The notes beneath the pieces were generated by a model, which did no database searches, was not told the DNA's origin, and saw nothing but the letters and a program-made list of their open reading frames with translations. The position numbers and the translations under genes were made by a program. Below are positions 1 through 63,786 of a stretch of 64,000 nt of DNA, in pieces; the stretch's first letter is position 1, and every line of letters begins with the position of its first letter. Source of the stretch: Nannocystis bainbridge (GTDB lineage: Bacteria > Myxococcota_A > Polyangia > Nannocystales > Nannocystaceae); contig NZ_JAQNDL010000001.1 of the NCBI RefSeq assembly GCF_028368995.1, positions 3,904,001 to 3,968,000 of the forward strand, in the 5' to 3' direction.

Positions 1-714
1 CGGCGCGCGCGTGACCCCCACGTGCGTCGACACCACCCCGTCGACCAGCAGCCAGATCCGCGCCGGCTCGCCGCGATGGGCCAGCCCCACGTGCCCGCGC
101 AGCTTGAACTGCGGCAGCTCGAGCTCGGCGCGCGCGAGGAACTGGCGCAGGCCGTCGCCGAGCGCCGCCCCGTCGACGCGGATCGCCGCCGGCGCGAAGC
201 GGGCCACGTCGGCCAGGTAGCTGCGCGCGCGAGCCGGCTCGAGCTCGGCTCCGCGGACCACGAACTCGGTCCCGCGGCCGCCGGACGGATCTGCCCCTTC
301 GGACAGGTTCGCCCGCCCTGGCCCCGCGAACTCGAGGCGACGCACCAGCCCGTGCGAGCGCGCGACGATCTCGACCCGCCCCGGGCGCAGCGCCGGCAGG
401 GCCAGCAGCGCCAGCGCCCCGGCCTGCTCGAGCGCCAGCAGGGCCCGGTGCCGCCGCTCGGCCGGGACCCCGGCGTCGAGCAGGTCCGCCACCGCCAGCA
501 GCAGCTCGCGCCCGATCGCCGCCCCGTCGTCGCGCACGCGCACCGACGCCCGCCCGAGCTCGACCTCGACCGTGCGGGCCCCGGCCGCCAGCGCCCGCCG
601 CACCAGCTCCGCCGGCAGCTGCCACGGCCCCTGCAGCTGCGCCGTCGCCAGCTTGCGCAGCTCGGCCTCGATGTCGATCGCCAACAGCTGGCGCAGGTCG
701 ACCGTCTCGCTCAC
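1..714 (-). CDS. Degenerate GHKL/HSP90-like ATPase-fold protein (runs off window start, partial)
   Basis: Not in the ORF track; translated by hand. GTG at 714 follows a GAGGAGG RBS and the frame is open to position 1: MSETVDLRQLLAIDIEAELRKLATAQLQGPWQLPAELVRRALAAGARTVEVELGRASVRVRDDGAAIG...GTEFVVRG. ELVxxAxxAGA, VRDDG and GTE are remnants of GHKL boxes and resemble the N-terminus of 1007..3967. Confidence 0.75.
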   Translation of the reverse strand, partial: MSETVDLRQLLAIDIEAELRKLATAQLQGPWQLPAELVRRALAAGARTVEVELGRASVRVRDDGAAIGRELLLAVADLLDAGVPAERRHRALLALEQAGALALLALPALRPGRVEIVARSHGLVRRLEFAGPGRANLSEGADPSGGRGTEFVVRGAELEPARARSYLADVARFAPAAIRVDGAALGDGLRQFLARAELELPQFKLRGHVGLAHRGEPARIWLLVDGVVSTHVGVTRAP

Positions 715-1010
715 CCAGGCCTCCTCGCGCTGGCTCGCTTCCCCCAGATGTCCCGAAGGACATGTCTCGAAACAACCTCGCTTAACATGTCCCGAAGGAC
801 ATGTCGCGGAGCAACCTCGAAGGACATGTCCCGAGCGACAGCCATGATCTCGAGCCGACACCCGGCCCGGAGTCCATTCTGCTCGCTCGCTTCGAGCCGA
901 CGCGCCCTGCCCGCGCGCTGCCTGTCCCGAGAGACATCCCGCCCGCTCACGCCGAGCCCGCGCGCCTCGCCCGCCCGTTGCCTGTCCCGAGAGACATCCA
1001 GTCCGCTCAC
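711..1010 (-). other. Repeat-derived 99-codon open frame between two coupled genes (doubtful CDS)
   Basis: GTG at 1010 overlaps the upstream TGA and its own TGA (711-713) overlaps the next GTG. It is composed of 60-bp and 39-bp duplications carrying the 14-bp palindrome. Confidence 0.35.
749..840. repeat. 39-bp tandem repeat (~2.4 copies) carrying TGTCCCGAAGGACA palindromes
   Basis: TGTCCCGAAGGACA at 749 and 788; TGTCCCGAGCGACA at 827. Confidence 0.85.
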
Positions 1011-1020
1011 GCCGGCCTCC
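901..1020. repeat. 60-bp direct duplication carrying TGTCCCGAGAGACA
   Basis: 901-960 and 961-1020 are near-identical; palindromes at 923 and 983. Confidence 0.85.
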
Positions 1021-3967
1021 CGCGGGCCGCCTCGTGCACCGCGTCGCGGGCCGCCGCGCGCAGCAGGCGGGCCGTGCGTTCCGGGCCGAGGTCGAGGCGG
1101 TCGAGCAGATAGTCGAGCGCCGCGAACACGGCCGCCGCCGGGCGACTCGCCAGCGCCCCCGCGGCGTCCTGCAGCCACGGGTTGTGCGCCCCGACCACCA
1201 CCACCCGGCGCCCGCGCAGCGGTGATTTGCGCAAGCGCAGCGGCGCCAGGTCGAGGCTTCGCAGCTCCTCGCTGCCGAGCGAAGGGCTGGCCAGCGCCTG
1301 CCACGGCTCGCCGGCCGCGGTCAGGCGCGCGCTCACGGCCCTGAGCAATTCGGTCTCCTGCGCGCTCGCCAGCAGCGCGTCCCACAGATCGAGGTCGGTC
1401 GCGCCGAGCGCATCGGCGACCGCGCGGGCCTCGGCGCGCTCCTCGTCGAGCACCGCCGCGTCGCCGGCCAGCGCGTCGACGGCCAGCGGCGTGCGCCGGC
1501 GCGTGCGGTACAGCCGGCCGCGGGCCGCCAGCCGCTTGGCCTGCGCCAGCGACAGCGCCCCGCCGGCGGCCGTCGGCACCAGCGGCCGCTCGAACACCGC
1601 CGGCACCGCCTGGAACACCTCCGGCTGCTGCAGCGCCCCCTGCAGCAGCCGCGACAGATCGCCCGTCGCGTCGAGCGCCACCCGCCGGCGCGTCCGCTCG
1701 CGCAGCAGCCCCAGCAGCGCCACCGCGAACAGCGCCGCCGCCCCGATCGCCAGCCCCCACGGCGCCAGCGCGCGCGGCGGTGACATGACCCTTTCGACAT
1801 GTTCTGAAGAACCTGCCCCGACGGCCATCTCCGCCGGCCCGTCGCTCGCCGCGCCCGCCGGTTCGCCGGCAGTCTCGTCCGTCGCCCCGACCGTCTCCCA
1901 CGCCGCGTCGATCTCCCCCGGCTCGACCGGCCCCGCCGGCGTCCCGAGAGCGATCCCCGTGCTCGCGTCGGCCACCGCCCACTCGCCGTCCTGCCCGCGG
2001 TACTCCGCCCACGCGTGCAGCCACGGGTTGACCCGCCCGTTTTGGCCCACGAACCCGATCGCCAGCCGCGACTCGACCCCCGCCTCCTGCAGCAGCGCCG
2101 TCAGCAGCCCGTTCTGCACGTCGCAGTCGCCTTGCCCGATCTCGAGCGCGCGGGTGATGAAGTGCTCGCCAGCCAGCGCCCGGTGCTGCGCCGCCACCTC
2201 GGGCGCCGTGCTGTACGCCACCAGCTCGCGGGTCAGCCGCGTCAGCGCCGACACCCGCGCGGCGATCGCTCGTCCGCGCAGCGCTCGCGCCTCGCGGCGC
2301 ACGTCGGCTGGCAGCAGCCCCGACGACACCGGCCGGATCGGCCTGCCCGCCGGCGCCGGCGCGGTGCGGTAGCGCAGCGTCCCGTCCGACGGCGCCGCCA
2401 GCATCAGCAGCGCGTCGTCGTCGGCCCCGCGCTGCAGCACCACCGGCGCGCCCTCGGGGTGGTCGGCGTCGCTCAGCGCCGCGCTGCCGTCGACCACCCG
2501 GTGGCCGGTCGGCACCGGCAGCCGCATCGGCCCGGCCGGCGCGCCGAGCCGCAGCTCGACCTCCGGGCACACCTGTCCTTCGAGACATGTCGTGAAGACA
2601 TAATCACCGCCCGGCGCCGGCGCCCGCGCCTCGGCCGCGTCGCCCAGGCGGGTGAACAGCAGCGCCGCGAAGTGCAGGCGCAGGTCGGCCGGGCGGAACG
2701 TCAGCGGCGGCTCGCGGGCCCCGGCCCCGGTCAGCACGTCGACCTGCGGCCCGCGGTAGCGCGCCGCCAGGTCGGAGTAACGGGCCGGCAGGTTGGCGCT
2801 GGCCGTTTCGCCATGTTCGATGGGACCTGTCCCGTAGGACATCCCGGGCGCCGGCCGGAAGCGGGCCCACACGCGGTCGCCCCACAGCGCCCACGCCGCC
2901 CCGCCGGCCAGCGCCGCCCCCAGCAGCGCCGCCAGGAACATGCGCACCGCCAGCGAGCGGCGGACCAGCCCGCGCAGCGCCGCCCACGGCCGCTGCCACA
3001 GCGGCAGCGGCCGGATCGCGTCGAGCTGGCGGGCGATCAGCCCCTCGAGCTCCCGCTGGGCCAGGTCGACCAGCCGGCGCAGCGCCTTGTTGTCGCGCGC
3101 GTCGGAGCGCGACAGCATCAGCTCGAGCGCGTCGCTCTCGAGCAGCGCCTGCGGGGCCAGCCGCCCCGGCAGCTCGGTGAACTGGACCCGGCTGTTGTCG
3201 GTGCTGCGGCCGCCGGCCACCACGAAATCGGAGAGCGAAGCCGCCGAGCGGACCCGGAGCCCGCGCGAGAACAGCTCGACCCGCGCCGCCTCGCCGAGCC
3301 CCACCACCCCGCGCACCCGCCCGCGGCGGAAGCTCGCGCTCGGGGCCGGCAGCGCGAACGGCTTGTTGACCTTGCGGCCGTTGACCGTCACCGTCAGCGG
3401 CCGCTCCGGATCGTCGCGCGTCGCCAGGAACCGCGCGTTCTGCAGCGCCGCGTCGAACACCCGCCGCTCGAGCGCCTCGTCGACTGCCGCCCGCTCGAGC
3501 TCGATCTCCGTGCCCGGCAGGCTCGGCGGCGTCGTCTTGCGCGCCGTCGAAAGATCGCCGTCGAGCTCGAGCGCCCACGCCCCCGACCTGTCCTCCGGGT
3601 CAGGTGAGTTCGGGTCCGGGCGCCGCGCCCGCGAGCGGATCGCTATCCGCTCCGGCTCGAAGCGCAGCACCGACCAGAAGCCGACCCCGAAGCGCCCGAC
3701 CTGGTCGCGGCGCGACTCCTTGCTCGACGCGTACAGCGCGAACAAATAGCGGCGCGCGTGGGCGAAGGTCATGCCCTCGCCGTCGTCGCGGCAGCGCAGC
3801 ACCCACCGACCGCCGCGCGCCTCGGCCGTGAACTCGACCTTCGTCGCCCCGGCGTCGCGGGCGTTCTGCAGCAGCTCGCGCACGAACACCCACGGGTCGG
3901 GCCCGTAGCGGTCGGCCTCGGCGCGGGCGCGGGCCCGGAACTCGGAGCCAGGCGGCGCGCCTGTCAT
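1007..3967 (-). CDS. HSP90-like (GHKL) ATPase fused to TM segment and transglutaminase-like domain
   Basis: N-terminal boxes RELLQNARDAGA, DDGEGM, GRFGVGF, GTEI; hydrophobic helix near aa 340-362; GDCDVQN...HAWAEY...DAS (Cys-His-Asp transglutaminase-like triad); second TM helix. Confidence 0.85.
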   Translation of the reverse strand: MTGAPPGSEFRARARAEADRYGPDPWVFVRELLQNARDAGATKVEFTAEARGGRWVLRCRDDGEGMTFAHARRYLFALYASSKESRRDQVGRFGVGFWSVLRFEPERIAIRSRARRPDPNSPDPEDRSGAWALELDGDLSTARKTTPPSLPGTEIELERAAVDEALERRVFDAALQNARFLATRDDPERPLTVTVNGRKVNKPFALPAPSASFRRGRVRGVVGLGEAARVELFSRGLRVRSAASLSDFVVAGGRSTDNSRVQFTELPGRLAPQALLESDALELMLSRSDARDNKALRRLVDLAQRELEGLIARQLDAIRPLPLWQRPWAALRGLVRRSLAVRMFLAALLGAALAGGAAWALWGDRVWARFRPAPGMSYGTGPIEHGETASANLPARYSDLAARYRGPQVDVLTGAGAREPPLTFRPADLRLHFAALLFTRLGDAAEARAPAPGGDYVFTTCLEGQVCPEVELRLGAPAGPMRLPVPTGHRVVDGSAALSDADHPEGAPVVLQRGADDDALLMLAAPSDGTLRYRTAPAPAGRPIRPVSSGLLPADVRREARALRGRAIAARVSALTRLTRELVAYSTAPEVAAQHRALAGEHFITRALEIGQGDCDVQNGLLTALLQEAGVESRLAIGFVGQNGRVNPWLHAWAEYRGQDGEWAVADASTGIALGTPAGPVEPGEIDAAWETVGATDETAGEPAGAASDGPAEMAVGAGSSEHVERVMSPPRALAPWGLAIGAAALFAVALLGLLRERTRRRVALDATGDLSRLLQGALQQPEVFQAVPAVFERPLVPTAAGGALSLAQAKRLAARGRLYRTRRRTPLAVDALAGDAAVLDEERAEARAVADALGATDLDLWDALLASAQETELLRAVSARLTAAGEPWQALASPSLGSEELRSLDLAPLRLRKSPLRGRRVVVVGAHNPWLQDAAGALASRPAAAVFAALDYLLDRLDLGPERTARLLRAAARDAVHEAARGRPA

Positions 3968-5195: not shown

Positions 5196-5204
5196 CGATC
5201 GTGG

Positions 5205-7272: not shown

Positions 7273-9099
7273 ATGGCGACCCGACCCACCGCTCCGGACC
7301 AGGCAGCGAACACGCGGCGTGAACCCGTTCCGGGCGAGACGACGACCGCCCCGCATGAGCCATCCGGGCTCGCTCCGAGCAGCGCAGCGACCGCCCAGCG
7401 CCACGAGCCCGCCCCGCTCCTGCCCCAGCGCCGCGAGAGCCTCGCGCGCGCCGTCGTCGACCTCGGCTACACGCCGGGCCGCGCCGACATGCGCGACGTC
7501 GTCGAGCTGCTCGGCGACGACGAGGACCTCGCCGTCCACGTCGAGCGCGCCCTCCTGCGGGCCGGCGCCGCCGCGGCTCCGGCCCTCCTGCGCCGCCTGC
7601 CCGGGGCAGAGCCGCCGCTGCGCCCGCGCCTCGTCCGCGTGCTCGGCCGCCTGCCTGCCGACCCCGCCATTGACATGTCCTTAAAAACATGTCTCGAAGA
7701 CCATGACCCGAAGACCAGGCGCAACGCCATCGGCGCGCTCGGCAAGCGCGGCGGCGAGGGCGTCGCCACCGCCCTGCTGACTTGCGCCCGCGCCGAGACC
7801 TCGCTGCCGCACCTGCGCAGCCTGGTCGAGGCGCTCGGCAAGGTCGGCGACGCCGACGCCCTCGCCTGGCTCGACCGCCTCGAGGCCGACGACCCCGAGC
7901 TGCAGCGCCTGACCGCGCGCGCCCGCCTGATGCTCGGCCGCAGCCTCGGCCGCGGCGAGGTCGACTCCGCGATCGACCTCGAAGCCGTCGCCCCGGCCCC
8001 GCGCCCGCTGGTGCTCGGCTGCCGCCCCGGCCTCGAGACGCTGCTCGCCGAGGCCCTCGGCGCCGCCTTCGCCCCCCGCGTCGTCGCCCCCGGCCGCGTC
8101 ACCGCGACCCTGCGCGGCCCGCTGCGCGAGCTGCTCGCCGTGCGCCTGTGGACCGAGGTCGGCCTGCCGCTGCCGCCCCTGTCCGCCGGGACAGATCTGT
8201 CCGCGGCCGTGGCGGCGCTGCTGACCGGCCCCGAGGCGCGCCTGGTCTTTGGGACATATACCAAGGGACAGGTCCGCTATCGGCTCGCCTGGGCCCGCGG
8301 CGGCCACCGCCGCGCCCTCGTGTGGCAGGTCGCCGCCGCCGCCGCCGCGCTGTGGCCGGAGCTGGTCAACGACCCACGCGAGACGACCTGGGAGGTCGTG
8401 GTCGACGACGCCGGTCTGCTCGTCCGCGCCGAGCTGCGCCCGCGCCGGTGGAGCGCCGAACGCCCGCCCGCCGACCTCACCAGCGCCAGCGCCGACGACC
8501 TCGCCAGCGACGACAAGCCCGCGCTCGAGACCACCGACCCGCGGTTCGCCTACCGCAGCGGCGACGTCCCCGCCGCCTCGCACCCGACGATCGCCGCCGC
8601 CCTCGCGCAGCTCGCCGAGGTCCGCCCCGACGACGTCGTCTGGGACCCGTTCGTCGGCTCCGGCCTCGAGCTGTGCGAGCGCGGCCTGCTCGGCCCCGCC
8701 ACGACCCTGCTCGGCACCGACCTCGACCCACGCGCCCTCGCCGTCGCCGCCACCAACCTGCGCAACGCCGGCCTGCGCGCCGACCTCCGCCAGGCCGACG
8801 CGACCACCCACCGACCGCCGGGCGTCACCCTCGTCATCACCAACCCGCCGATGGGCCGCCGCGTCCATCGCGGCGACGTCGGCCCGCTGCTGACGGCCTT
8901 CATCGCCAACGCGGCCGCGACCCTGGCCCCCGGCGGCCGCCTGGCGTGGATCTCGCCGATCCCCCGGACCACCGACCCGGCAGCCGAGGCGGCCGGCCTG
9001 GTCCTGCGCCGCTCGCTGAACCTCGACATGGGCGGCTTCACGGCCCAGCTCCAGCTGTGGGACAAGCCGTCGCGCCTGGGCCGCCGCGCCCGCGCGTGA
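7273..9099 (+). CDS. HEAT-repeat + THUMP-like/class I SAM-dependent (RNA amino-)methyltransferase
   Basis: HEAT repeats (DPKTRRNAIGALGKRG, LVEALGKVGD); WDPFVGSG motif I, GTDLD, and ITNPPMG motif IV. Confidence 0.8.
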   Translation: MATRPTAPDQAANTRREPVPGETTTAPHEPSGLAPSSAATAQRHEPAPLLPQRRESLARAVVDLGYTPGRADMRDVVELLGDDEDLAVHVERALLRAGAAAAPALLRRLPGAEPPLRPRLVRVLGRLPADPAIDMSLKTCLEDHDPKTRRNAIGALGKRGGEGVATALLTCARAETSLPHLRSLVEALGKVGDADALAWLDRLEADDPELQRLTARARLMLGRSLGRGEVDSAIDLEAVAPAPRPLVLGCRPGLETLLAEALGAAFAPRVVAPGRVTATLRGPLRELLAVRLWTEVGLPLPPLSAGTDLSAAVAALLTGPEARLVFGTYTKGQVRYRLAWARGGHRRALVWQVAAAAAALWPELVNDPRETTWEVVVDDAGLLVRAELRPRRWSAERPPADLTSASADDLASDDKPALETTDPRFAYRSGDVPAASHPTIAAALAQLAEVRPDDVVWDPFVGSGLELCERGLLGPATTLLGTDLDPRALAVAATNLRNAGLRADLRQADATTHRPPGVTLVITNPPMGRRVHRGDVGPLLTAFIANAAATLAPGGRLAWISPIPRTTDPAAEAAGLVLRRSLNLDMGGFTAQLQLWDKPSRLGRRARA

Positions 9100-9110
9100 G
9101 ACCCAAAAGC

Positions 9111-13686: not shown

Positions 13687-13710
13687 TGATATGTCCTAAA
13701 AGACATATCA
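13687..13710. promoter_or_regulatory. Extended AT-rich copy of the 14-bp palindrome in a divergent intergenic region
   Basis: TGATATGTC-CTAAAA-GACATATCA with perfect 9-bp arms. Confidence 0.55.
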
Positions 13711-15804: not shown

Positions 15805-15888
15805 TGACCGATCGGACCTGCCTGATCGGTCATGTCCGAAACGACATGCTCTACCGAGCATGTCCCCTCGAACATGCTCCGTCGGCCA
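15805..15888. repeat. Six head-to-tail degenerate 14-bp palindromes
   Basis: TGACCGATCGGACC|TGCCTGATCGGTCA|TGTCCGAAACGACA|TGCTCTACCGAGCA|TGTCCCCTCGAACA|TGCTCCGTCGGCCA. Confidence 0.8.
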
Positions 15889-17820: not shown

Positions 17821-18111
17821 AAGACGGGAGCAGCGGGAGCGATCCGAATCATAACCGAGGCAGGCGACATGGATCGAATCCGTCGCCAGAACGCGAGCGC
17901 CCGCGCGTTATCGCACAATCGCTCCGGCGAAGAAAGCAGCTTGCCGCAGGGGCGCGACTCGAAGCTGTCCCTCGGGACAGGAACTCGGGCGCGCGCAGGT
18001 CGAGATCCGTCACCGATCTGCGAGCCTCGCCGTCGATGCCTGCGCACACCTCCCGGCGTCGGACTCGGCTTGTAATCACCGGGTCGGTCACGCATCGTAC
18101 TCGAGCCCGTG

Positions 18112-20578: not shown

Positions 20579-20747
20579 TGGCCCTTCGGACCTGTCCGAA
20601 GGGCCATTTGCATTTAAGCCGGCCGAACTCGGGTCGCGAGGTCATCACGCCGGCTCGCCCGGGCCGTGGCCCCGATGGCCAGGACATGTCCTCCGGGACA
20701 TGTCCATGTGAATATGTTCATCTGGACATGTCTATCGGGACATGTCC
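20579..20747. repeat. Hairpin pair plus phased array of 14-bp palindromes between convergent genes
   Basis: TGGCCCTTCGGACC|TGTCCGAAGGGCCA at 20579-20606; TGTCCTCCGGGACA|TGTCCATGTGAATA|TGTTCATCTGGACA|TGTCTATCGGGACA at 20687-20742. Confidence 0.85.
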
Positions 20748-24966: not shown

Positions 24967-26940
24967 GTGACGGACGCCGAGACCAGAGCCAAGGTCGGAG
25001 ACGTGCTCGGCGAGCGTTGGGAGCTGCGCGAATCGATCGATACGAGCGGCCCCGGCCGGGTCTTCTTCGCCTGGGACCGCGAGCGCCGCCAGCCCTGCGC
25101 GCTCAAGCTGTTCGACCCCGGCGCCGTCACCCCCGACGCGTTCCGCCGGTTCGCCGAGGCCGTGCGCAGCGCCGCCGCGGCGCGTCACCCCGCGCTCGTG
25201 CTGCCCGCGACACCCACCGTCGCCGGGGGCCCGCGCATCGCGGTGCGCGAATGGCTGGAGGGCCTCGACCTCGACGGCCTGCGCGGCCGCGACGGGGCGC
25301 TGCAATGGTCGCGGGCCGCCGAGATCGTGAGCACCTGCGCGGACGCGCTCGCGGTCGTTCACGAGGCCACAGGGCTCGCGCACCGCGCGCTGAAGCCTGG
25401 CAATGTGTTCATCACCGGGGACTCGCAGGTGCGGCTCCTGGACCTCGGGATCGCCGAGCTCGGCGTGACGCCGGTGCCGGCCCGCCCCGGCGGCGTGTTC
25501 GTCGAATACCGGGCGCCGGAGCAGCTCGAGGGCCACGCCGGCGACGCCCGCTCCGACGTGTTCACGCTCGCGGTGCTGCTATTCGAATCGACGACCGGGG
25601 TCCATCCATTCACCGGCGCCTCCGCGTTCAAGGCGGCCCACAAGGCGCTGCAGTCGGCGCCCGACCTGGCGACCGCCGGCCTGCCGGCCCAGGCCCGGCC
25701 GCTGCTGGTCCGCGCGCTGGCGCGGCGCCCGGAGGAGCGTCACGCCAATGCGCGCGAGTTCCTGCGCGCATTGACGCTGGTGCGGCAATCGGTCGGCAGC
25801 GCCGCCCCGCGCCCGGCCGCCGCCGTCGACAATGCACATACCGCGGAGCCCGCCGAGCCCGTCGTCGATCCGACCACGCAGCTGCGGATCCCCGTGCAGC
25901 GCCCCCAACCCGCCGCGGCGATCGAGGCGCCCGCCCGCGGCGCCAGCCAGGCCTTCATGGCCCCCGTCGCGCCGTTCACCGCCGACCCGCCCGACCTCCG
26001 CGCGGCCGACGAGCCGGCGCTGCTGGGCACCGGACGCGAGCGAGCCACCCCGACGCGCACGCCGACCACTCCTCAACCTCCGCCCTCCGCCCTGCCCCGG
26101 CTCGATCCCGAGCCGAGCACCGAACGCGACGCCCGCCGCTCCGCGCCCGCCGAGCCGACGATCTCGCTGCCCGAATCTCCACGCATGTCCCGAAAGACAG
26201 GTTCACTCGAGCCCGTCGCCCGCCAGCTCCAGGCCTCGAAGTCCGCCCGGCCCACCGCTAACTACGTCCCCGGTCCGCCCGATCTTCCCGCCGACTGGAT
26301 CACCACCGAGCGCGACCCCACCCGTCCGCCGCGAAAGCCCCTCACGCCGTCCGTCGATGACCTGGCGCGAAAGCCAGGTTCAACTCCCGGGCGCGACGAC
26401 CGACGCCAGCCCGAGCGGCCGAACCCCACCACCGACGAAGACGCGGCGACCACCGCCATGCCGACGCTGCGGCGCCCGCCGCTGAATTCCGCCGCCGGCG
26501 ACCTGCCCGACGGCCCCGGCGACGACGAAACGCGCGCGCTGCCCCGCCGCGGCCCCGGCTCGACCGTGATCGATGATGAACCGAGGGACATGCCCGCAAG
26601 GACAGGTCCACGCCCCGCCGAGGCGACGCTCGCCCTGACCGACCCATCCGTGCTCTCGCCCGGCAAGCGCCCCGAAGCGACCGTGGTCCTCGATCAACCC
26701 GGCTCCCTGCCCGCCGAATCGACGCTGGCCCTGTCTGACCCCAGGGACATGCCCCATCGGCCATCCCATGAATCACGCGACCTCGAGGATGCGCCACCGA
26801 CAGCGACCGCGCCCATCGCCCGAGCCCGCCCCGAATCCGCCCTCGACAAGCCCTGGCTGTCCCCGCGCGGCCTCATCGTCTTCAACGTCGCCCTCGGCGC
26901 CCTGATCCTCACCGCCCTCGCCGTGGTGCTGACGCGCTGA
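24967..26940 (+). CDS. Ser/Thr kinase-like protein (probable pseudokinase) with low-complexity linker and C-terminal TM anchor
   Basis: ALKL, HRALKPGN (catalytic Asp replaced by Ala), DLG, YRAPEQ, DARSDVF. Confidence 0.85.
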   Translation: MTDAETRAKVGDVLGERWELRESIDTSGPGRVFFAWDRERRQPCALKLFDPGAVTPDAFRRFAEAVRSAAAARHPALVLPATPTVAGGPRIAVREWLEGLDLDGLRGRDGALQWSRAAEIVSTCADALAVVHEATGLAHRALKPGNVFITGDSQVRLLDLGIAELGVTPVPARPGGVFVEYRAPEQLEGHAGDARSDVFTLAVLLFESTTGVHPFTGASAFKAAHKALQSAPDLATAGLPAQARPLLVRALARRPEERHANAREFLRALTLVRQSVGSAAPRPAAAVDNAHTAEPAEPVVDPTTQLRIPVQRPQPAAAIEAPARGASQAFMAPVAPFTADPPDLRAADEPALLGTGRERATPTRTPTTPQPPPSALPRLDPEPSTERDARRSAPAEPTISLPESPRMSRKTGSLEPVARQLQASKSARPTANYVPGPPDLPADWITTERDPTRPPRKPLTPSVDDLARKPGSTPGRDDRRQPERPNPTTDEDAATTAMPTLRRPPLNSAAGDLPDGPGDDETRALPRRGPGSTVIDDEPRDMPARTGPRPAEATLALTDPSVLSPGKRPEATVVLDQPGSLPAESTLALSDPRDMPHRPSHESRDLEDAPPTATAPIARARPESALDKPWLSPRGLIVFNVALGALILTALAVVLTR

Positions 26941-39661: not shown

Positions 39662-40702
39662 TCACCGCATCAGCGTCATCTCGCTGCCGGGCAGCGCCAC
39701 GCCCTCGCGGAACCCGAGCCCGTGATAGAACGACTGCGCGTCGCGGGTGCGCAGGAGGACGCGCCGACAGCCGCGGACCCGCGGGTGATCGAGCAACATC
39801 TTTGTAAGAGCCTTGCCGAGCCCGCGGCCGCGCCACGACTCCGCCACCGCGATGTCGAGCAAGAAGGCGCAGCGGGCCCCGTCGGCGATCGCTCGCCCGG
39901 TGGCGACGAGCGCCCCCGCCTGGTCGCGCGCGCCCACCCACGCCGACGACGAGAGCTGCGCGCGCACGATCCTGTCCTTCGGGACATCCACGTTCCAGTA
40001 TTGCCCCCCGAGCAGCAGGGCCACCTCCGCGACGTCGGCCGGCCCGAGCGCGCAGTGGAGCCGCGCCCCCGCGGGCGCCTGCAGGAACTCGGGCGTCGCC
40101 ACGTTCGGGTTGGCTGCCCGCACCAAATCGATCGCCCGCGGATCCCCAGCCTCGCCGCGCGCCCACAGGAATCGCAGCACCTTGCCCAGGTCGTCGGCGC
40201 TGCGGTTCTGGCCCAGCTTGGCCTTGCCGTCGACCTGCGTCAGCGGCAGGCCGACCACCGCGATCCCCCGCACCGGCCCGCGGTAGCGCGGATCGTCGGC
40301 GGTGATCGGCGCATGGCCGCCCTCCGGCTGATGCTTCTCCATCAACGCTTGCAGCACCCGGGCCTTGAGCGCCGGGTCCTCCACGCCCACCAGCGTCCCG
40401 TGCACCTGGGCGCTGCGGTAATACGTGGTCGCCGGGCAGGCCCGCTCCGGGTCGAACACGTGGCTCGGGATCGTCGCCACCAGCTCGTCCGCGGCGATCA
40501 CCGCCGCGCGCCCCACCGCCTCCGACTTCTCGCCGACGGGCGCCGCGTGGAAGTACAGCCAATCGTCGACCACCACCGCGTGCAGCGTGCGCAGCACCGG
40601 CTGCCCCTGCTCGCCGATCCCCGCCAGGCGCACCACCGGCGCCGCCGCCAGCAGCGCGACCGCCTCCTCGCGCGCCATCCCGAAGAACTCCTGCTTGCGC
40701 AT
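39662..40702 (-). CDS. Pyridoxamine-5'-phosphate-oxidase-like flavin-binding domain fused to GNAT acetyltransferase
   Basis: LYFHAA..GEK, ATTYYRSAQVHG, GKAKLGQN; C-terminal LLDIAVAESWRGRGLG...AQSFY..LGF. Confidence 0.85.
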   Translation of the reverse strand: MRKQEFFGMAREEAVALLAAAPVVRLAGIGEQGQPVLRTLHAVVVDDWLYFHAAPVGEKSEAVGRAAVIAADELVATIPSHVFDPERACPATTYYRSAQVHGTLVGVEDPALKARVLQALMEKHQPEGGHAPITADDPRYRGPVRGIAVVGLPLTQVDGKAKLGQNRSADDLGKVLRFLWARGEAGDPRAIDLVRAANPNVATPEFLQAPAGARLHCALGPADVAEVALLLGGQYWNVDVPKDRIVRAQLSSSAWVGARDQAGALVATGRAIADGARCAFLLDIAVAESWRGRGLGKALTKMLLDHPRVRGCRRVLLRTRDAQSFYHGLGFREGVALPGSEMTLMR

Positions 40703-42344: not shown

Positions 42345-43049
42345 ATGACTCGCCTCCTGCTCGTCAGCAACTCCACGCTCCACGGCTCCGGCTACCTCGA
42401 TCACTGCGCCGAGCAGATCGGGCAGTTCCTCGGCCGCGGCGTCACGCGCGTCCTGTTCATCCCGTTCGCGCTGCACGACCGCGACGCCTACGCCGCCCAG
42501 GCGCGGGCCCGCTTCGCCGAGTTCGGCTACCAGCTCGACAGCCTGCACGAGGCCGCCGACCCACGCGCCGCCGTGCAGACCGCCCAGGCCGTGTTCACCG
42601 GCGGCGGCAACACCTTCCGGCTGCTGCGCCAGCTCTATGCGCTCGACGTGCTCGCGCCCCTGCGCGAACGTGTCCTTTCGGACATGCCGTACATCGGCTC
42701 CTCGGCCGGCTCGAACATCGCCGGCCTGACGATCGGCACCACCAACGACATGCCGATCGTCGAACCGCCGAGCTTCCGCGCCCTCGCCCTCGTGCCGTTC
42801 AACCTCAACCCGCACTACCTCGATCCGGAACCCGGGTCGACGCACATGGGCGAGACCCGCGAGAAGCGGATCGAGCAGTTCCACGAGGAGAACCCGCAGC
42901 CGGTGGTGGGCCTGCGCGAGGGCTCGCTGCTGCGGCGCGAGGGTCCGCGGCTCAGCCTGCTCGGCGTCACCGGCGCCCGGATCTTCCGCCGCGATCAGAA
43001 GCCCACGGAGGTGCCACCAGGCGCCGACCTGAGCGATCTGCTCGCCTGA
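42345..43049 (+). CDS. pepE: Dipeptidase E (peptidase S51)
   Basis: LLVSNS, GGGNTFRLL, GSSAGSN, TTNDMPIV, NPHY, HMGETRE.RI. Confidence 0.93.
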   Translation: MTRLLLVSNSTLHGSGYLDHCAEQIGQFLGRGVTRVLFIPFALHDRDAYAAQARARFAEFGYQLDSLHEAADPRAAVQTAQAVFTGGGNTFRLLRQLYALDVLAPLRERVLSDMPYIGSSAGSNIAGLTIGTTNDMPIVEPPSFRALALVPFNLNPHYLDPEPGSTHMGETREKRIEQFHEENPQPVVGLREGSLLRREGPRLSLLGVTGARIFRRDQKPTEVPPGADLSDLLA

Positions 43050-51236: not shown

Positions 51237-52691
51237 ATGCCACGACGCACAGCCTTCTTCGTCCGGACCTCGTCGATGTTCACGCTGGCCGTGGCCGTGA
51301 CCGCAGCGTCGCTCGCCCCCGCGGCCGGAGCCGCGCCCGCCCCCGCCCCCGCGCGCAAGACCGGCGACCCGCCGGCACCGCTGCTCGCGCCGGCGCCCGA
51401 GCCGAGCCAGTCGATCCCCGAACCCGTCGTCGCCGGGGCCCAGGTGCTGCCGCTCGACGCCATCCTCAAGCACGCCGAAGAGAACGCGATGCCGGTCCGC
51501 GCCGCGCGCACGCGGCTCGAGCTCGGCGACGCCGCGATCACCGGCGCCAAGCCGCTGCTGATCGACAACCCGCAGCTGTACCTCGGCATGGGCGCGCGCA
51601 TGAACCCCGCGTACACGGACGACACGCAGTTCGAGCTGCAGGCCACGCTGCAGCAGCCGATCGAGATCGGCCGCGAACGCAGCCTCCGCATCAAGGCGGG
51701 CCGCGAGTACCGCGAGTTCCTCGACAAGGAGCTGGCGCAGGTCCGCTGGACCACCCACGCGCAGGTCCACTACGCCTACAACACGGCGCTGATCGCCAAG
51801 GAGCGCGCCCGCACCGCCTCGCGCACGCAGCAGTTCGCCGAGCGCCTCCTCGACATCGCCAGCCGGCGCCAGCAGGCCGGTGAGATCTCGCGCCTGCGCG
51901 TGCGCGTGGCCGAGGGTGAGCTGGCGCGCGCCCGCCAGAGCAAGCTGGCCGCGGACCTCAACTTCCGCCTGGCGTGCATCCACCTGGCCGAGATGGCCGG
52001 CTGGCCTTCGGGACAGCTCATCGCCCCGGCCGGCGAGCTCGGCGACCCGATCAAGGTCCGCGACCCCGAGGACCTGATCGCCAACGTGCAGAAAGAGCAC
52101 CCCGCGCTCAAGACCCGGGAGGCGCAGGTCGAGCTCGGCGAGGCCCGCGCCAAGTCGGCCAAGCGCGACCGCCTGCCCGAGCCGTGGGTCGGCGTCTACG
52201 TCGGCCGCGAGCGCGAGCCGGGCCTGATGGAGAACATGCCGGCCTCGCGGATCGTGCTCGGCATGATCACGATCCCGCTGCCATTCTTCAAACGCAACCA
52301 GCTGGCGCGGGCCCAGACCCGAGCCGAGCTGAGCGTCGCCAACACCGAGCTCGAGGTCACGCGCTACCAGCTGGCGATGAACGCCCGCCGGGCGGTCGAC
52401 GCCATCAACACCGCGGCCGAGCGCGTGCGCACCTACTCGCGCGAGGTCGTGCCGCGCTTCGAGGAGAACCTGCAGCTGCTGCAGCGGGCCTTCGAGCTCG
52501 GCGAGGTCGACATCATCGAGGTGTTCGTCGCCCGCGAGAATTTCTTGCGGATCCAGACCGAGGCGCTCGACGCCTACGGCACCTACTTCGACGCCATGTA
52601 CACGCTCGAGACGATCATCGGCTCGGAGGTGAGCACCCTCGTCTCGCCCGGCCCGACTCGCTCGAGCGCCCCGCCCGCGACCCTCCGCTGA
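51237..52691 (+). CDS. czcC: TolC/CzcC-family outer-membrane efflux protein
   Basis: Two OEP repeats (LQQPIEIG, IPLPFF.RNQ, FELGEVDII.V); start uncertain. Confidence 0.8.
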   Translation: MPRRTAFFVRTSSMFTLAVAVTAASLAPAAGAAPAPAPARKTGDPPAPLLAPAPEPSQSIPEPVVAGAQVLPLDAILKHAEENAMPVRAARTRLELGDAAITGAKPLLIDNPQLYLGMGARMNPAYTDDTQFELQATLQQPIEIGRERSLRIKAGREYREFLDKELAQVRWTTHAQVHYAYNTALIAKERARTASRTQQFAERLLDIASRRQQAGEISRLRVRVAEGELARARQSKLAADLNFRLACIHLAEMAGWPSGQLIAPAGELGDPIKVRDPEDLIANVQKEHPALKTREAQVELGEARAKSAKRDRLPEPWVGVYVGREREPGLMENMPASRIVLGMITIPLPFFKRNQLARAQTRAELSVANTELEVTRYQLAMNARRAVDAINTAAERVRTYSREVVPRFEENLQLLQRAFELGEVDIIEVFVARENFLRIQTEALDAYGTYFDAMYTLETIIGSEVSTLVSPGPTRSSAPPATLR

Positions 52692-52876
52692 CCTGTCCCT
52701 CGGGACAGTCGATGGACTTCGCCTGTTCCGCTGACCTGTCCCTCGAGACAGTCGCTGGACTTCGCCTGGTCCACTGACCTGTCCCACGGGACAGTCTCTG
52801 GACTTCACCTCGTCCGTTGACCTGTCCCTCGGGACAGGCAGGGAGATCTCCCCCGCGGGACCTGTCCTCGCGGACA
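52684..52876. repeat. 43-bp tandem repeat (3.6 copies), each with a near-perfect 14-bp palindrome, plus a fifth site
   Basis: TCCGCTGACCTGTCCCTCGGGACAGTCGATGGACTTCGCCTGT-like units at 52684, 52727, 52770 and 52813; TGTCCTCGCGGACA at 52863. Confidence 0.9.
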
Positions 52877-54774: not shown

Positions 54775-55716
54775 ATGAGGCCCGGCTCCCGGCTCCTGGT
54801 GCTGCTCGCGGCGACGATCGGCGTCGTCTCGGGCTGCCTGGTCGAGCTCGACCCGCCGGCCGACTGCGGCGACGGCTTCATCGACGTGCTCGCCCAGGAG
54901 GACTGCGAGCCGTCCCTGCCCGACAGCTACGCCGACCGCTGCGCCGAGCTCGACCGCGTCGCCAGCCCGGCCGCCTGCGACCCCAAGACCTGCCGCTTCG
55001 CCGCCAGCGGCTGCCTCGCCTGCGGCAACGGCGTGCTCGACCCCGGCGAGGAGTGTGACCCCGAGGACATGTCCGAACCGACATGTCCCGGAGAAGGGGT
55101 AGCGACCTGCCGCGACAACTGCACCGTCGACCGCTCGGCCTGCTCGGCCTGCGGCAACGGCGTGCTCGACGTCGACGAGGAATGCGACTTCGCCCTCGAC
55201 CTCGACGACCTGGCCCTGACGATCGCCTGCGCGGAGCTCGACTCGCCGGGCGGCATCTCCCGCCGCTACGGCTCGGGCGAGTCGACCCGCTGCACCAGCA
55301 AGTGCGAGTGGGACCGCTCGCGCTGCTCCTACTGCCAGAACGACAAGCTCGAGGGCGACGAGGTCGACGGCCTCTACGTCGACTTCGAGCAGACCATCCA
55401 GCCGCCGCCCGAGGTCTGCGACAACCAGCACGCCGACCCCGAGGCCCTGGTGGCTCATTGCCAGTCGGCCTGCGGCAGCAGCTACCGCGTCGAGTGCCAG
55501 TTCTCCTGCGCCACCGACTGTCTGGAGTTCGAGAACGTGGGCGTGCCGACCGAAGAGCTCGGCTGCTGCACCGCCCGCAAAGAGACCTGCCCCTACGACC
55601 CGCAGACCGGCGAACTGATGCCCGGCCGCAGCCACTGCTGCCGCAAGCTCACCCATCCGGACGAGAATCCCTGCGAGCCGACCGGCTTCCCAAACCTCAT
55701 CTACACGTGCCGCTGA
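54775..55716 (+). CDS. Cys-rich myxobacterial lipoprotein
   Basis: Lipobox VSGC; CGDG and CGNG...EECD repeats. Confidence 0.8.
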   Translation: MRPGSRLLVLLAATIGVVSGCLVELDPPADCGDGFIDVLAQEDCEPSLPDSYADRCAELDRVASPAACDPKTCRFAASGCLACGNGVLDPGEECDPEDMSEPTCPGEGVATCRDNCTVDRSACSACGNGVLDVDEECDFALDLDDLALTIACAELDSPGGISRRYGSGESTRCTSKCEWDRSRCSYCQNDKLEGDEVDGLYVDFEQTIQPPPEVCDNQHADPEALVAHCQSACGSSYRVECQFSCATDCLEFENVGVPTEELGCCTARKETCPYDPQTGELMPGRSHCCRKLTHPDENPCEPTGFPNLIYTCR

Positions 55717-57028: not shown

Positions 57029-58057
57029 ATGTCCGAGCCTCGCAAGTCTCTCGTCACCGGCGGCTGCGGCTTCCTCGGCCGCTTCCTCGTCGACGCCCTC
57101 GTCCGCCGCGGTGACAAGGTCACCGTCCTCGACCACAAGGTCGATCGCTGGCGCGACGACGTCCAGTTCATCGCCGGCGACATCTGCGACCCCGAGGTCG
57201 TCGCCCGCGCCTGCGCCGGCCAGGACGTCGTGTTCCACAACGCCTCGCTGGTCCACACCAAGCACAGCCGCGTCGAGCAGGTCCGCGCCGTCAACATCGA
57301 CGGCACCCGCAACGTCCTCGAAGCCTGTCGCAAGGGACAGGTGCCGAAGCTCGTCTACGTCAGCTCCGCCAGCGTCGTCTACGAGGGGCGCGACATCGAG
57401 CGCGGCGACGAGAACCTGCCCTACGCCCGCGAGTGGCTCGCGCCCTACGCCGAGACCAAGCGGATCGCCGAGGAGGAGGTCCTGAACGCCAACGGTCAGG
57501 GCGGCCTGCTCACCTGCGCCATCCGCCCGCACATGATCTTCGGGCCCGGCGACACCCGCCTGCTGCCGGCGATCCTCGCCCGCGCCAGGGCCGGCAACCT
57601 CAAGTTCACCGTCGGCGGCGGCGACCGCCTCAACGACTTCACCTATGTCACCAACATCGTCGACGCCCTGCTGGCCGCCGACGAGCGCCTGGTGCCCGGC
57701 TCACCGGTCGGCGGTCGCGCCTACTTCATCACCAACGGCGAGCCGATGAACTTCTGGGACTTCGTGCGCCGCGTCCTCGTCGGCCTCGGCTACCCGACCC
57801 CGCGGTTCCGCATCCCCTACGCCGTCGCCTACGCCGCCGCTGCCGCCCGCGAGACCTTCGACACCATCGTCCGCGGCGGCACCCTGCACGCCGAGGAGGG
57901 CCTGTCGCGGTTCTCGATCCGCTACATCTGCACCCACCACTACTTCGACTGCGCGCGCGCGGCCGCCGACCTCGGCTACAAGCCCCAGGTCTCGATGCTC
58001 GAGGGCATCCGCCGCACCGTCGAGTATTTTCGCGCCCAGGGCATCGCCGCCGCCTGA
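57029..58057 (+). CDS. 3-beta-hydroxysteroid dehydrogenase/NSDHL-like extended SDR
   Basis: VTGGCGFLG, VFHNAS, VYVSSASVV, YAETK, AIRPH.IFGPGD, DFTYV.N, GRAYFITNGEP..FWDF. Confidence 0.85.
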   Translation: MSEPRKSLVTGGCGFLGRFLVDALVRRGDKVTVLDHKVDRWRDDVQFIAGDICDPEVVARACAGQDVVFHNASLVHTKHSRVEQVRAVNIDGTRNVLEACRKGQVPKLVYVSSASVVYEGRDIERGDENLPYAREWLAPYAETKRIAEEEVLNANGQGGLLTCAIRPHMIFGPGDTRLLPAILARARAGNLKFTVGGGDRLNDFTYVTNIVDALLAADERLVPGSPVGGRAYFITNGEPMNFWDFVRRVLVGLGYPTPRFRIPYAVAYAAAAARETFDTIVRGGTLHAEEGLSRFSIRYICTHHYFDCARAAADLGYKPQVSMLEGIRRTVEYFRAQGIAAA

Positions 58058-60453: not shown

Positions 60454-60498
60454 GAGCGACGCTCCTCGCGGTCGCGCGGGTTCACGGCCGCGCAATGA

Positions 60499-61302: not shown

Positions 61303-61418
61303 CAGGCCGCGCTCACCATAACGCAATCAGGTCCGCCACCGTATCCCGGCGCTCGCCGGGCCTGGGCCGCAGCCCTTGTGGGAGGCGCTGCAGCATCACG
61401 GCCGGCGGCGCCTGTCCC

Positions 61419-62136: not shown

Positions 62137-63714
62137 GTGACTTCCGACTTCGACTACGACTTCATCGTCGTCGGCTCCGGCTTCGGCGGCAGCGTCTCCG
62201 GCCTCCGGCTGACCGAGAAGGGCTACCGCGTCCTCATGCTCGAGAAGGGCGGCGAGCTCGGGCCGGCCGAGTTTCCGAAGACCAACTGGAACCTCAAGCG
62301 GTGGCTGTGGATGCCGAAGCTCGGCTGGCGCGGCCTGTTTCAGATGACCTTCTTCCGCCACGTCACCGTGCTCTCGGGCGTCGGCGTCGGCGGCGGCTCG
62401 CTGGTCTACGCCAACACGCTACCTGTCCCGAAGCACAGCTTCTTCGAGTCGCCCTCGTGGGCTCGCCTCGCCGACTGGGAGAACGAGCTGAAGCCGCACT
62501 ACGAGACCGCGCTGCGGATGCTCGGCGCGGCGCCGAACCCTGCGGTCACCCCGGTCGACCGGGTCATGCGGGGCGTCGCTGCCGACATGGGCAAGACCGT
62601 CGAGCCGACCCATGTCGCGGTCTATTTCGGCGAGCCGGGCAAGACCGTGGCCGACCCGTACTTCGGCGGCAGCGGCCCCGAGCGGACCGGCTGCATTTAC
62701 TGCGGCGGCTGCATGCTCGGCTGTCGCTTCGGCAGCAAGAACACCCTCGACAAGAACTACCTCTTCTTCGCGCGCAAGCGCGGCCTCGAGCTGCAGGCCG
62801 ACACCGAGGTCACCGCCGTGCGCGCCCTGCCGGGCGGTGGTTATCGCGTCGAGGCGCGCAGCGGCACCGGCCTGCTCGGCCGCCAGGCCCGCAGCTTCAC
62901 CGCCCGCAACGTCGTGCTCGCCGGCGGCGTGCTCGGCACCGTCGACCTGCTGCTGCGCATGAAGCAGGACCCCGACGGCCTGCCCAAGTTGTCCGACCGC
63001 CTCGGCGAGAACGTGCGCACCAACTCCGAGTCGCTCATCGGCATCGTCGGCGCCCAGCGTCAGCACGACCTCTCGCGCGGCGTCGCCATCGGCTCGATCA
63101 TCCAGCTCGACGAGCACTCGCACGTCGAGCCCGTGCGCTACTCCGCCGGCTCCGGCTTCTGGCGCCTGCTGCTCGCCCCGCACGTCGCCGGCGAGAAGGC
63201 CCTGGTCCGCCTGTCGCGGTTCGCCGGCGCCTTCCTCCGCCACCCGATCAAGTTCGCCCGCGCCTTGATGGTCCCCGACCTCGCCAAGTACTCGATCATC
63301 CTCCTCTACATGAAGACCGCCGAGGGCACCTTGCGCCTCCGCCTCGGCGCCACCGGCCTCGCCACCGACCTCTCCTCCGGCAAGCCGCCCACCGCATCGA
63401 TCCCCGAGGCCACCGACATCGCCCGTCGCGTCGCCGACAAGATCCAGGGCTACTCGATGTCGCTCGTCACCGAGACCCTGTTCAATATTCCGACCACCGC
63501 CCACATCCTCGGCGGCTGCACCATGGGCGACTCGGCCGAGACCGGCGTCATCGACCATCAGCACCGCGCCTTTGGTTACGACGGCCTCTACGTCATCGAC
63601 GGCTCGGCCGTCTCGGCCAACCCTGGCGTCAACCCCTCGCTCACGATCACCGCCCTCGCCGAGCGGGCCATGAGCCGGATCCCCGCCAACGTCGAGGTCG
63701 CCGCCTCGGCCTGA
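62137..63714 (+). CDS. GMC oxidoreductase, cholesterol-oxidase (ChoD)-like
   Basis: VVGSGFGGSV, GVGVGGGSLVYAN, C..CG.CM.GC..G.KNTLDKNYL, TAHILGGC, N.GVNPSLTITALAERAM. Confidence 0.9.
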   Translation: MTSDFDYDFIVVGSGFGGSVSGLRLTEKGYRVLMLEKGGELGPAEFPKTNWNLKRWLWMPKLGWRGLFQMTFFRHVTVLSGVGVGGGSLVYANTLPVPKHSFFESPSWARLADWENELKPHYETALRMLGAAPNPAVTPVDRVMRGVAADMGKTVEPTHVAVYFGEPGKTVADPYFGGSGPERTGCIYCGGCMLGCRFGSKNTLDKNYLFFARKRGLELQADTEVTAVRALPGGGYRVEARSGTGLLGRQARSFTARNVVLAGGVLGTVDLLLRMKQDPDGLPKLSDRLGENVRTNSESLIGIVGAQRQHDLSRGVAIGSIIQLDEHSHVEPVRYSAGSGFWRLLLAPHVAGEKALVRLSRFAGAFLRHPIKFARALMVPDLAKYSIILLYMKTAEGTLRLRLGATGLATDLSSGKPPTASIPEATDIARRVADKIQGYSMSLVTETLFNIPTTAHILGGCTMGDSAETGVIDHQHRAFGYDGLYVIDGSAVSANPGVNPSLTITALAERAMSRIPANVEVAASA

Positions 63715-63720
63715 CCCGCC

Positions 63721-63786
63721 TGTCCTTCGGGACAGCTTCTCTCGGCCGCGCCGCCTGACCCCGCGAGGGACCTGTCCCTCGGGACA
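63721..63786. repeat. Two consensus 14-bp palindromes downstream of the GMC gene
   Basis: TGTCCTTCGGGACA at 63721; TGTCCCTCGGGACA at 63773. Confidence 0.8.

Follow-up and report, generated by a model that had tools for sequence, protein, structure and literature searches.

Units of a 14-bp bipartite palindrome, TGTCC-N4-GGACA, are repeated thousands of times in the genome of Nannocystis, where they abut in exact register to form 14-bp-periodic arrays and are concentrated just past the ends of genes. The palindrome was followed up from a 64,000-nt stretch of DNA (hereafter the window), which corresponds to C1:3904001-3968000 of a Nannocystis assembly (G000; 11.05 Mb, 71.5% G+C, 5 unordered contigs, 90.5% complete). 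An earlier note on this stretch, hereafter the original prediction, had proposed the palindrome as a chromosome-scale DNA signal. The excess of TGTCN6GACA is confirmed to be real and genome-wide. The interpretation given in the original prediction is supported in part; the four functions that it had offered (nucleoid organisation, occlusion, uptake and self-marking) stay hypothetical. Our preferred reading, to which we give a probability of about 45%, is a palindromic lattice in duplex DNA, concentrated at gene ends and read by a putative symmetric protein, with a role that would resemble that of repetitive extragenic palindromes (REP) and bacterial interspersed mosaic elements (BIME).

Excess and anatomy of the palindrome

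The strict form TGTC-N6-GACA occurs 26 times in the window, every start lying where the original prediction had put it, whereas dinucleotide shuffles gave 0.67 ± 0.84 copies with a maximum of 3, and 0 of 100 shuffles reached 26. When up to two mismatches to TGTCCNNNNGGACA were allowed, 76 window sites were obtained against 25.1 ± 4.9 in the shuffles. Nineteen of the 20 degenerate examples named earlier are in this list, while the one at 45410 was not found there. Genome-wide, TGTCN6GACA is present 3663 times at the N6 spacer, compared with 29-155 times at each other spacer from N0 to N15. The comparison with the two neighbouring spacers that had been proposed beforehand, N5 (78 copies) and N7 (120), came out clearly for N6. 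With 0, 1 or 2 mismatches over the ten arm positions, the genome holds 1987, 4258 and 7530 units, respectively, the corresponding ranges at control spacers being 2-16, 98-322 and 2058-5923. Units with at most one mismatch number 6245, and the total is estimated at about 9,000-10,000 by subtraction of the controls. As a single word, GGACATGTCC exceeds its order-2 Markov expectation 177-fold, more than any other 10-mer in the genome; the half-word TGTCC alone reaches 1.7 times its expectation under the same model. Both the shuffles and the other spacers therefore show that the motif is real and well in excess of chance.

The logo of the 3663 sites reads RCA-TGTCC-N4-GGACA-TGY, in agreement with the CA/CC left and TG/GG right flanks noticed earlier. 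Within the unit, TGTCC-Nx-GGACA is found 1987 times at x = 4, 16 times at x = 3 and 5 times at x = 5. Between units, GGACA-Nx-TGTCC is found 956 times at x = 0 and 11 times at x = 1, with echoes at +14 and +28 bp. Abutting units (GGACA/TGTCC) thus form 14-bp-periodic arrays of two to about eight units, in which a 10-bp node, GGRCATGYCC, recurs every 14 bp. This lattice, like the gene-end rule described below, was absent from the original prediction. Partner arms flank the 956 nodes on both sides, and the periodicity fades across about three units. The gaps between adjacent strict sites peak at 14 nt (144 times), 28 nt (88), 42 nt (61) and 56 nt (36). Chaining of the units with at most one mismatch at gaps of ≤60 nt resulted in 4689 loci, comprising 3593 solitary units, 776 doublets and 320 loci with at least three units.

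Conservation is restricted to the 5+5 arm positions plus two to three flanking bases, and the four centre positions carry 0.03-0.29 bit, which bears out the earlier description of conserved arms around a free centre. In the flanks, position -1 is C in 71% of the sites, position 0 is A (58%) or C (37%), position +15 is T (59%) or G (35%) and position +16 is G in 61%; further downstream the DNA is C/G-rich, with a T fraction of at most 0.29 from +18 onward. Within arrays the centres have been randomised while the arms stayed held: among 485 abutting pairs, the two centres are identical in 19 and reverse-complementary in 16. The constraint on the arms differs from pair to pair. Pair 2/13 is nearly invariant, its largest single change occurring 25 times against 1987 perfect units when the other four pairs are consensus. 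Constraint is weakest at the central pair 3/12, where each single-arm change occurs 178-451 times. Compensated double changes occur about as often as the product of the singles predicts for G,C (78 vs 76 expected) and for A,T (25 vs 21), and covariation is absent at the flank pairs -1/16 and -2/17.

No larger mobile repeat unit exists beyond the 14 bp. In a flank BLAST with the motif masked and neighbours excluded, distant-flank similarity was detected for 189 of the 3663 sites, and in the components inspected it consists of neighbouring 14-bp units. This agrees with the earlier argument that the palindrome is not a copied miniature inverted-repeat transposable element (MITE). Some copies in the window are tandem duplicates, as had also been recognised, with a period of 39 at 748-834, of 60 at 893-1014 and of 43 at 52684-52837. 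Such duplication does not account for the genome-wide excess, because distant-flank similarity is confined to those 189 sites.

Position relative to genes, coding copies and clade distribution

Genes were called by a crude codon-usage caller of our own (8102 genes, 83.7% coding). By these calls, 2320 of the 3663 strict sites (63%) are intergenic, 1301 lie within genes and 42 at an edge; of the 26 strict sites in the window, called genes contain 9 and the remaining 17 are intergenic. The density of strict sites is 3.06 per kb in convergent spacers, 1.16-1.27 in co-directional spacers and 0.44 in divergent spacers. Occupancy follows the same order, at least one unit with no more than one mismatch being present in 737 of 1318 convergent (56%), 953 of 3764 co-directional (25%) and 227 of 1473 divergent spacers (15%). 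The original prediction had described the sites as occurring regardless of gene function. This stands in that the pattern is not that of an ordinary regulon, but it misses a positional rule, namely a largely intergenic location in an 84%-coding genome together with a convergent bias.

In co-directional spacers, the units stand at a median of 72 nt past the upstream stop, with 10-20 nt as the modal bin. For the 515 co-directional spacers of 400-800 nt, the unit counts in successive 25-nt bins after the stop are 73, 55, 61, 38, 36, 25, 30 and 26, while those in the bins leading up to the next start range from 6 to 20. The crowding into the first 75 nt past the stop is thus not mere promoter avoidance. 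Genome-wide, 211 pairs of a promoter-proximal unit and a small gene were also counted.

Each of the five contigs carries strict sites, their density ranging from 4 to 60 per 100 kb. No gradient tied to GC-skew switches was seen along these unordered contigs, and the lows fall in lower-GC stretches. Intergenic unit density is 0.31-0.76/kb below 70% GC vs 2.2-3.3/kb at ≥71% (Spearman 0.51-0.53, 219 bins). As the motif itself is not G+C-rich, this trend suggests that resident DNA accumulates units and that acquired DNA comes without them. At C1:1,100,000-1,300,000, where the GC content is 67.6-69.6%, there are 4-6 units per 50 kb against an average of about 28, and this stretch is probably acquired DNA.

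Inside genes, a synonymous-codon shuffle within each called gene, the codon-preserving control that the original prediction had called for, gave 91 ± 8 N6 sites against 1301 observed, i.e. an approximately 14-fold excess. Observed and shuffled numbers for other spacers were 78/78 at N4, 107/87 at N7, 15/12 at N8 and 43/18 at N5, the last being a mild excess. A strong in-frame coding signal over 30 codons on each side was found for 557 of the 1301 in-gene sites, and an at least moderate one for 816. Two reading frames hold 657 and 543 of these sites, vs 101 in the third. The in-gene sites of the window occur in Pfam domains (Peptidase_S51, 3Beta_HSD, PmbA_TldD_3rd) and in linkers. Alignment with four other Nannocystis species indicated that in-gene sites arise via substitution without indels. 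Site 57326 was made in this lineage by the synonymous changes GGC to GGA (to a rare codon) and AAA to AAG. Site 42671 is present in three of the five species, the other two differing by Gly/Asp and Val/Met, and site 55070 is likewise present in three of the five.

A neighbour within 60 nt accompanies 24% of the in-gene units vs 55% of the intergenic ones, and the full CA..TG flanks are carried by 8.5% vs 37%. The densest in-gene arrays are in-frame low-complexity repeats (PVPADMS, PVPEDIS) with periods of 21, 36 and 48 bp, and the DNA signal seems to have shaped disordered protein linkers. In-frame repeats encoded by the palindrome DNA (PVPADMSPVTSS, AVPADSQ, PVPADIS) were observed at C2:1217435-1217700, C2:2066962-2067347, C2:2616756-2616985 and C3:586332-586516 of the same genome, with periods of 36, 36, 36 and 21 bp, respectively.

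The motif is clade-specific, being abundant in Nannocystis, lower in two sister genera and at background level elsewhere. In the family of 73 genomes, TGTCCNNNNGGACA has 114-2090 copies per genome in Nannocystis (g1; 11 of 11 genomes), 67-696 in genus g4 (7 of 7) and 87-169 in genus g2 (5 of 5). Genus g32 (8 genomes) has 5-20 copies, the other 13 genera have 0-11, and the backwards-read control gave 0-10. Of 200 further genomes sampled across the phylum (143 genera), two contain the 18-mer CATGTCCNNNNGGACATG, with one copy apiece, against 369 copies in its own genome. The survey of related Myxococcota suggested in the original prediction therefore traced the motif to g1, g2 and g4, and found it near absent from the rest of the phylum sampled. 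Both g2 and g4 share the syntax, with units 7-17 nt past stops and abutting units.

Past gene 51276-52691 of the window, arrays are present in all five Nannocystis species and are unalignable; orthologues of the gene itself (89-92% identity) are found in Nannocystis sp. RBIL2, N. exedens DSM 71, N. punicea FL3 and N. pusilla Na p29. When bipartite palindromes were sought de novo, the motif was recovered in 200 kb of its own genome, and no comparably dominant palindrome came up in 200 kb of a g2 genome (G011); the scan of a g4 genome (G013) covered 41 kb, which is too little. In G011 (61% GC), of a genus in which the motif is rare (87 copies), a perfect 20-bp palindrome with an AT-rich centre at L001:1501-1520 overlaps the likely ATG of a lipoprotein-like open reading frame. 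Window positions 50000-56000 are partly represented by contigs in 20 public runs. In four soil-metagenome runs, no usable indel polymorphism was seen at the window array, the contigs being fragmented and the array coverage near zero. Eight viral contigs with one 20-mer site each are at background level and hence uninformative.

Candidate readers, rival explanations and known systems

In the reading that we prefer, a symmetric (dimeric or lattice-forming), sequence-specific protein would recognise the unit as double-stranded DNA, each monomer reading TGnCC with G2, C4 and C5 critical and position 3 scarcely read. By analogy with what has been proposed for enterobacterial REP/BIME, the units may mark or insulate the ends of transcription units as a topological barrier, a roadblock or an anchoring point. 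Arrays would grow through local duplication, and solitary copies would arise by point substitution under selection or drive toward the motif. A bolder version, which we regard as conceivable but doubtful, supposes that, in Nannocystis and two sister genera, the putative protein forms polymers along GGRCATGYCC-N4 lattices, keeping the 14-bp register, at gene ends that number several thousand. It would then be a dedicated system for marking or insulating transcription-unit ends, for instance by absorbing supercoils or blocking read-through where genes converge, and its weaker solitary sites would spread through genes via selection or drive.

Several results weigh against a duplex reader acting at gene ends. 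Within called genes lie 41% of the units with at most one mismatch, which is awkward for a roadblock or an end mark unless solitary units are inert. The occupancy of convergent spacers (56%) is below the approximately 67% that would result if as many units were Poisson-distributed; therefore nothing suggests that each gene end requires a unit. The coding/intergenic split also inherits the errors of the crude gene caller. No reader protein was found among the array-flanked genes and the families searched: the genes with at least three units on both sides are, in 10 of 10 cases, unrelated enzymes, kinases or proteins without an assigned function, none of them DNA-binding by Pfam. Moreover, the units occupy the positions of terminators and REP hairpins, and a protein could equally read the hairpin. 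Arrays fold better than their shuffles (-102.9 vs -75.2 kcal/mol, z = -6.0; -103.3 vs -71.6 kcal/mol, z = -6.5). The TGCCC..GGGCA (C,G) double change exceeds the product of the singles about 2.4-fold (146 vs about 60), with some excess of double changes also at pairs 1/14 and 4/11, and the flank pair 0/15 covaries modestly (2116 vs 1730 expected). The last of these can be ascribed to the lattice, because A..T is found within arrays and C..G at array ends.

Fold stability, terminator-like position and the ability of a protein to read a hairpin are the reasons why a single-strand hairpin is kept as the main rival, although we consider it rather unlikely. Here the units would be mRNA 3'-end stem-loops that terminate transcription (bidirectionally between convergent genes) or shield transcripts from 3' exonucleases, as has been suggested for REP, and a hairpin-specific protein or common descent would have conserved them. 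The location just past stops and between convergent genes would suit this role, as would the folding of the arrays, the covariation at pair 0/15 and the TGCCC..GGGCA excess. Hairpin-plus-T-run terminators are not enriched at window positions 44001-64000 (7 vs 4.5 ± 1.8 expected), hence something else must end transcripts. The units themselves were rejected as intrinsic terminators, as no T-run follows them, the scan was not enriched and 0 of the 7 terminators lies at a strict unit. What favours a symmetric duplex reader over a plain RNA hairpin is the strict N4, the near-independent arms, the loose central pair, and the lack of both a loop strand bias and a sense-strand G·U preference; the original prediction, which had preferred a dimeric protein site to an RNA hairpin, is supported in this respect. 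As a 5-bp stem would suffer most from a mismatch at its middle pair, the loose central pair 3/12 is the opposite of what stem stability demands; single-arm transversions are common. Among 819 one-mismatch units ≤150 nt past stops, 233 are of the G·U type on the sense strand, 207 of the C·A type (p = 0.23) and 379 are transversions. The centres on the transcribed strand are balanced (CGAG 65 vs CTCG 64; CGAA 58 vs TTCG 52), so that no stable tetraloop is favoured on the sense strand. A loop fixed at 4 goes beyond the energetic need of a stem-loop, hundreds of copies lie within conserved coding sequence, and the window has no Rfam match besides two tRNAs.

An unlikely explanation is molecular drive without any function per site, in which the unit would be a preferred substrate of a genome-wide process, such as DNA uptake and recombination during transformation, or biased repair or conversion, and would accumulate where tolerated: most past gene ends, some in loose protein parts and least in promoters. 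Drive would fit the in-gene copies that arose by point substitution despite rare codons and amino-acid changes, the piling up of units in PVPADMS-type low-complexity linkers, the 3-7 fold lower density in lower-GC, probably acquired stretches, the unsaturated occupancy of gene ends and the copy number that differs by clade. For HIP1 (highly iterated palindrome 1) of cyanobacteria, a preprint reports a raised transformation efficiency (bioRxiv 10.1101/2024.09.10.611283). The small excess of the TGTCC half-word and the fixed-spacer palindrome are, however, unlike oriented uptake words, and the first 75 nt past the stop are preferred even in long spacers with ample neutral room. Transformation of Nannocystis is undocumented in the literature covered. 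Vsr (PF03852) and C5 methylase (PF00145) are absent from the genome, with positive controls in reference genomes. The sole D12-class adenine methyltransferase gene, C1:3591550-3592293 (-), belongs to a class present in 69 of the 73 family genomes irrespective of motif count, which suggests an orphan, housekeeping methylase. A HIP1-like drive through C5 methylase and Vsr was rejected, both families being absent and the D12 methylase not tracking the motif. About nine N6/N4 methylase genes (12 matched stretches) are also present in the genome, and the rejection covers the C5, Vsr and D12 families.

Copies that are many, palindromic, biased to extragenic DNA and grouped in arrays, together with between-species turnover at one locus, might also point to a non-autonomous mobile element, such as a MITE or a REP or REPIN (REP doublet forming a hairpin), whose transposase is encoded elsewhere. 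We judge this to be very improbable. The Y1/RAYT transposase (PF01797) has 0 matches in the genome, while the control was positive in 6 of 14 reference genomes; the conserved sequence is confined to the 14-bp unit, the centres are unrelated between copies, and in-gene copies came about by substitution without indels. Besides, 14 bp is too short for transposase binding sites. Even less credence is given to chance, to an artefact of coding or codon use, or to an ordinary transcription-factor regulon. Palindromes of 14 bp whose centre is free are typical for helix-turn-helix operators, and some units do lie in divergent promoter regions (the 227 spacers given above), but thousands of copies are depleted in promoter regions and enriched past stops. 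Artefact and chance are refuted by the counts of the window shuffles and the synonymous shuffle. The PadR operator, ATGT-N8-ACAT, fits the extended palindrome; this operator reading was rejected because the PadR family (PF03551) has 0 matches in the genome, its control being positive in 14 of 14 reference genomes. As the known drivers tested are absent or do not track the motif, the reader or driver is therefore probably new.

Among described systems, REP/BIME comes nearest in position and in its habit of forming arrays. These are high-copy palindromes past genes, often in regular arrays, species- or genus-specific, and proposed as protein-binding sites and 3'-untranslated-region elements (PMC2817692, PMC3116915, bioRxiv 10.64898/2026.03.23.713779). 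The Nannocystis units are likewise high-copy, clade-restricted palindromes that follow genes in spaced arrays. They differ in their 14-bp length, free 4-bp centre and fixed spacer, whereas a REP is a 20-40-nt imperfect palindrome conserved throughout, loop and head included. In addition, the arrays are abutting direct repeats of the palindrome, unlike the alternating REPs with conserved linkers of a BIME, and more than one third of the copies are in genes. Membership of the REP/REPIN-RAYT class was thus rejected, as RAYT is absent, there is no long conserved palindrome and the location is not strictly extragenic. The original prediction had named REP solely as a possible refutation; the likeness in position makes it instead the nearest parallel, and the formal membership fails.

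HIP1 (GCGATCGC) is described as an iterated palindrome found about once per kb throughout a group of cyanobacteria, in and between genes, with a debated function (PMC4390886, PMC13756078). It shares with the Nannocystis motif a genome-wide excess in coding and non-coding DNA across a clade. Unlike HIP1, an uninterrupted octamer linked to cognate methyltransferases, our motif is bipartite, builds 14-bp lattices, is found mainly at gene ends, and occurs in a genome without C5 methylase or Vsr and with a D12 methylase that does not track it. The DNA uptake sequences (DUS) of Neisseria and the uptake signal sequences (USS) of Pasteurellaceae number about one copy per kb, are clade-specific, enter genes at a codon cost and often form inverted pairs past genes; they are oriented and abundant singly. 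The Nannocystis motif resembles them in clade-specific iteration that includes genes at codon cost, yet its excess lies in pairs at a fixed 4-bp spacer, as the contrast between the half-word and GGACATGTCC indicates. The sites of chromosome organisers, i.e. parS/ParB, Noc-binding sites (NBS/Noc), SlmA-binding sites (SBS/SlmA) and matS/MatP, are 12-16-bp palindromes that are read by dimers and may lie in genes, with a few to about a hundred sites related to the origin or terminus. A regional organiser of this type, as the original prediction had contemplated, was rejected: there are 3663 strict sites, a gene-end rule and no regional gradient along the five unordered contigs. Cooperatively bound abutting operators, such as MetJ metboxes, omega and ParG/ParR-type repeats, occupy few loci per replicon with 7-11-bp periods. 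They share the exact-register tandem arrangement of short palindromic boxes with little or no linker; the Nannocystis period is 14 bp and the loci number thousands. No description of the motif in Nannocystis or Myxococcota, nor the strings TGTCCNNNNGGACA, TGTCC-N4-GGACA or TGTCN6GACA, was found in the literature searched, which left subscription journals and supplements outside. This agrees with the earlier statement that none of the dispersed signals compared there is known to have this consensus.

The motif belongs among the iterated palindromic elements, and there is a real chance that its reader might define a new system. Iterated palindromes such as REP, HIP1 and uptake sequences rank with the commonest, and also the most poorly understood, signals of bacterial genomes, and the Nannocystis case, with its fixed spacer, exact 14-bp lattice and sharp gene-end rule, is unusually clean. 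It offers a natural copy-number range from about 100 to about 2000 per genome over three genera, together with a codon-preserving null. The organism is culturable, and the reader could be obtained by a simple DNA-affinity experiment. If a protein lattice in 14-bp register proved true, it would be a chromosome-architecture signal of a kind not known elsewhere in bacteria. The motif is also a ready marker of native versus acquired Nannocystis DNA, its arrays are a likely cause of assembly breaks, and it is relevant to the design of expression constructs and the refactoring of gene clusters in this natural-product producer.

Loci in the window

Table 1. Palindrome units and arrays of the window, with their gene context (coordinates are window positions)
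Coordinates	Feature	Context
748..840	Three strict units (749, 788, 827) in a 39-bp tandem repeat	Intergenic, between ..714(-) and 1007-3967(-)
893..1014	60-bp tandem repeat with strict units 923 and 983	Unit 983 is 11 nt past the stop of 1007-3967(-)
2574..2841	Strict units 2574 and 2828 (abutting degenerate unit 2814)	In 1007-3967(-), between HATPase and transglutaminase domains
8180..8270	Strict unit 8180 and degenerate abutting pair 8243/8257	In 7273-9099(+), HEAT/methyltransferase linker
13692..13705	Lone unit with AT-rich centre	Divergent intergenic
15805..15874	Units 15805 (2 mismatches), 15833 (strict) and 15861 (1 mismatch) in 28-bp register	Convergent, between 15264-15800(+) and 16024-17820(-)
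17966..17979	Lone strict unit with C..G flanks	Divergent intergenic
20579..20742	Abutting pair 20579/20593 and four-unit 14-bp lattice 20687-20742	Convergent, between 19558-20553(+) and 20764-22008(-)
26186..26763	Strict unit 26186 and abutting pairs 26577/26591 and 26736/26750	In kinase gene 24967-26940(+), past the kinase domain
29159..29255	Two abutting degenerate pairs, 29159/29173 and 29228/29242	3' end of gene 29138-31036(-)
29914..29927	Strict unit	PmbA/TldD C-terminal domain of gene 29138-31036(-)
39973..39986	Strict unit	Inter-domain linker of gene 39662-40702(-)
42671..42684	Strict unit	Peptidase_S51 domain of gene 42345-43049(+)
52684..52876	Five strict units (52694, 52737, 52780, 52823, 52863), the first four (52694-52823) in a 43-bp tandem repeat	Convergent, between 51276-52691(+) and 52878-53906(-); the tandem repeat begins 3 nt past the stop of 51276-52691(+)
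55056..55083	Abutting pair 55056 (1 mismatch)/55070 (strict)	In Cys-rich repeat gene 54799-55716(+), encodes ..DMSEPTCP..
57326..57339	Strict unit	3-beta-HSD/epimerase domain of gene 57029-58057(+)
63721..63786	Two strict units (63721, 63773)	Co-directional intergenic, from 7 nt past the stop of 62137-63714(+)

Two of the genes listed in Table 1 have features of their own. The gene 1007-3967(-) encodes a protein of 986 aa with an N-terminal HATPase/sacsin-like domain and a transglutaminase core. The Cys-rich protein of 54799-55716(+) consists of CGNGVLD...C...C repeats without a Pfam match, and the motif encodes D-M-S inside these repeats. The two tRNA genes, which are the sole Rfam matches in the window, are located at 9163-9235 (-) and 32584-32656 (+).

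A distinct tandem repeat (period 35/73) with GAGCTC...GAGCTC inverted repeats was observed at 44571-44753, in the convergent spacer between 43875-44567(+) and 44898-45389(-), and it may represent a second kind of gene-end palindrome.

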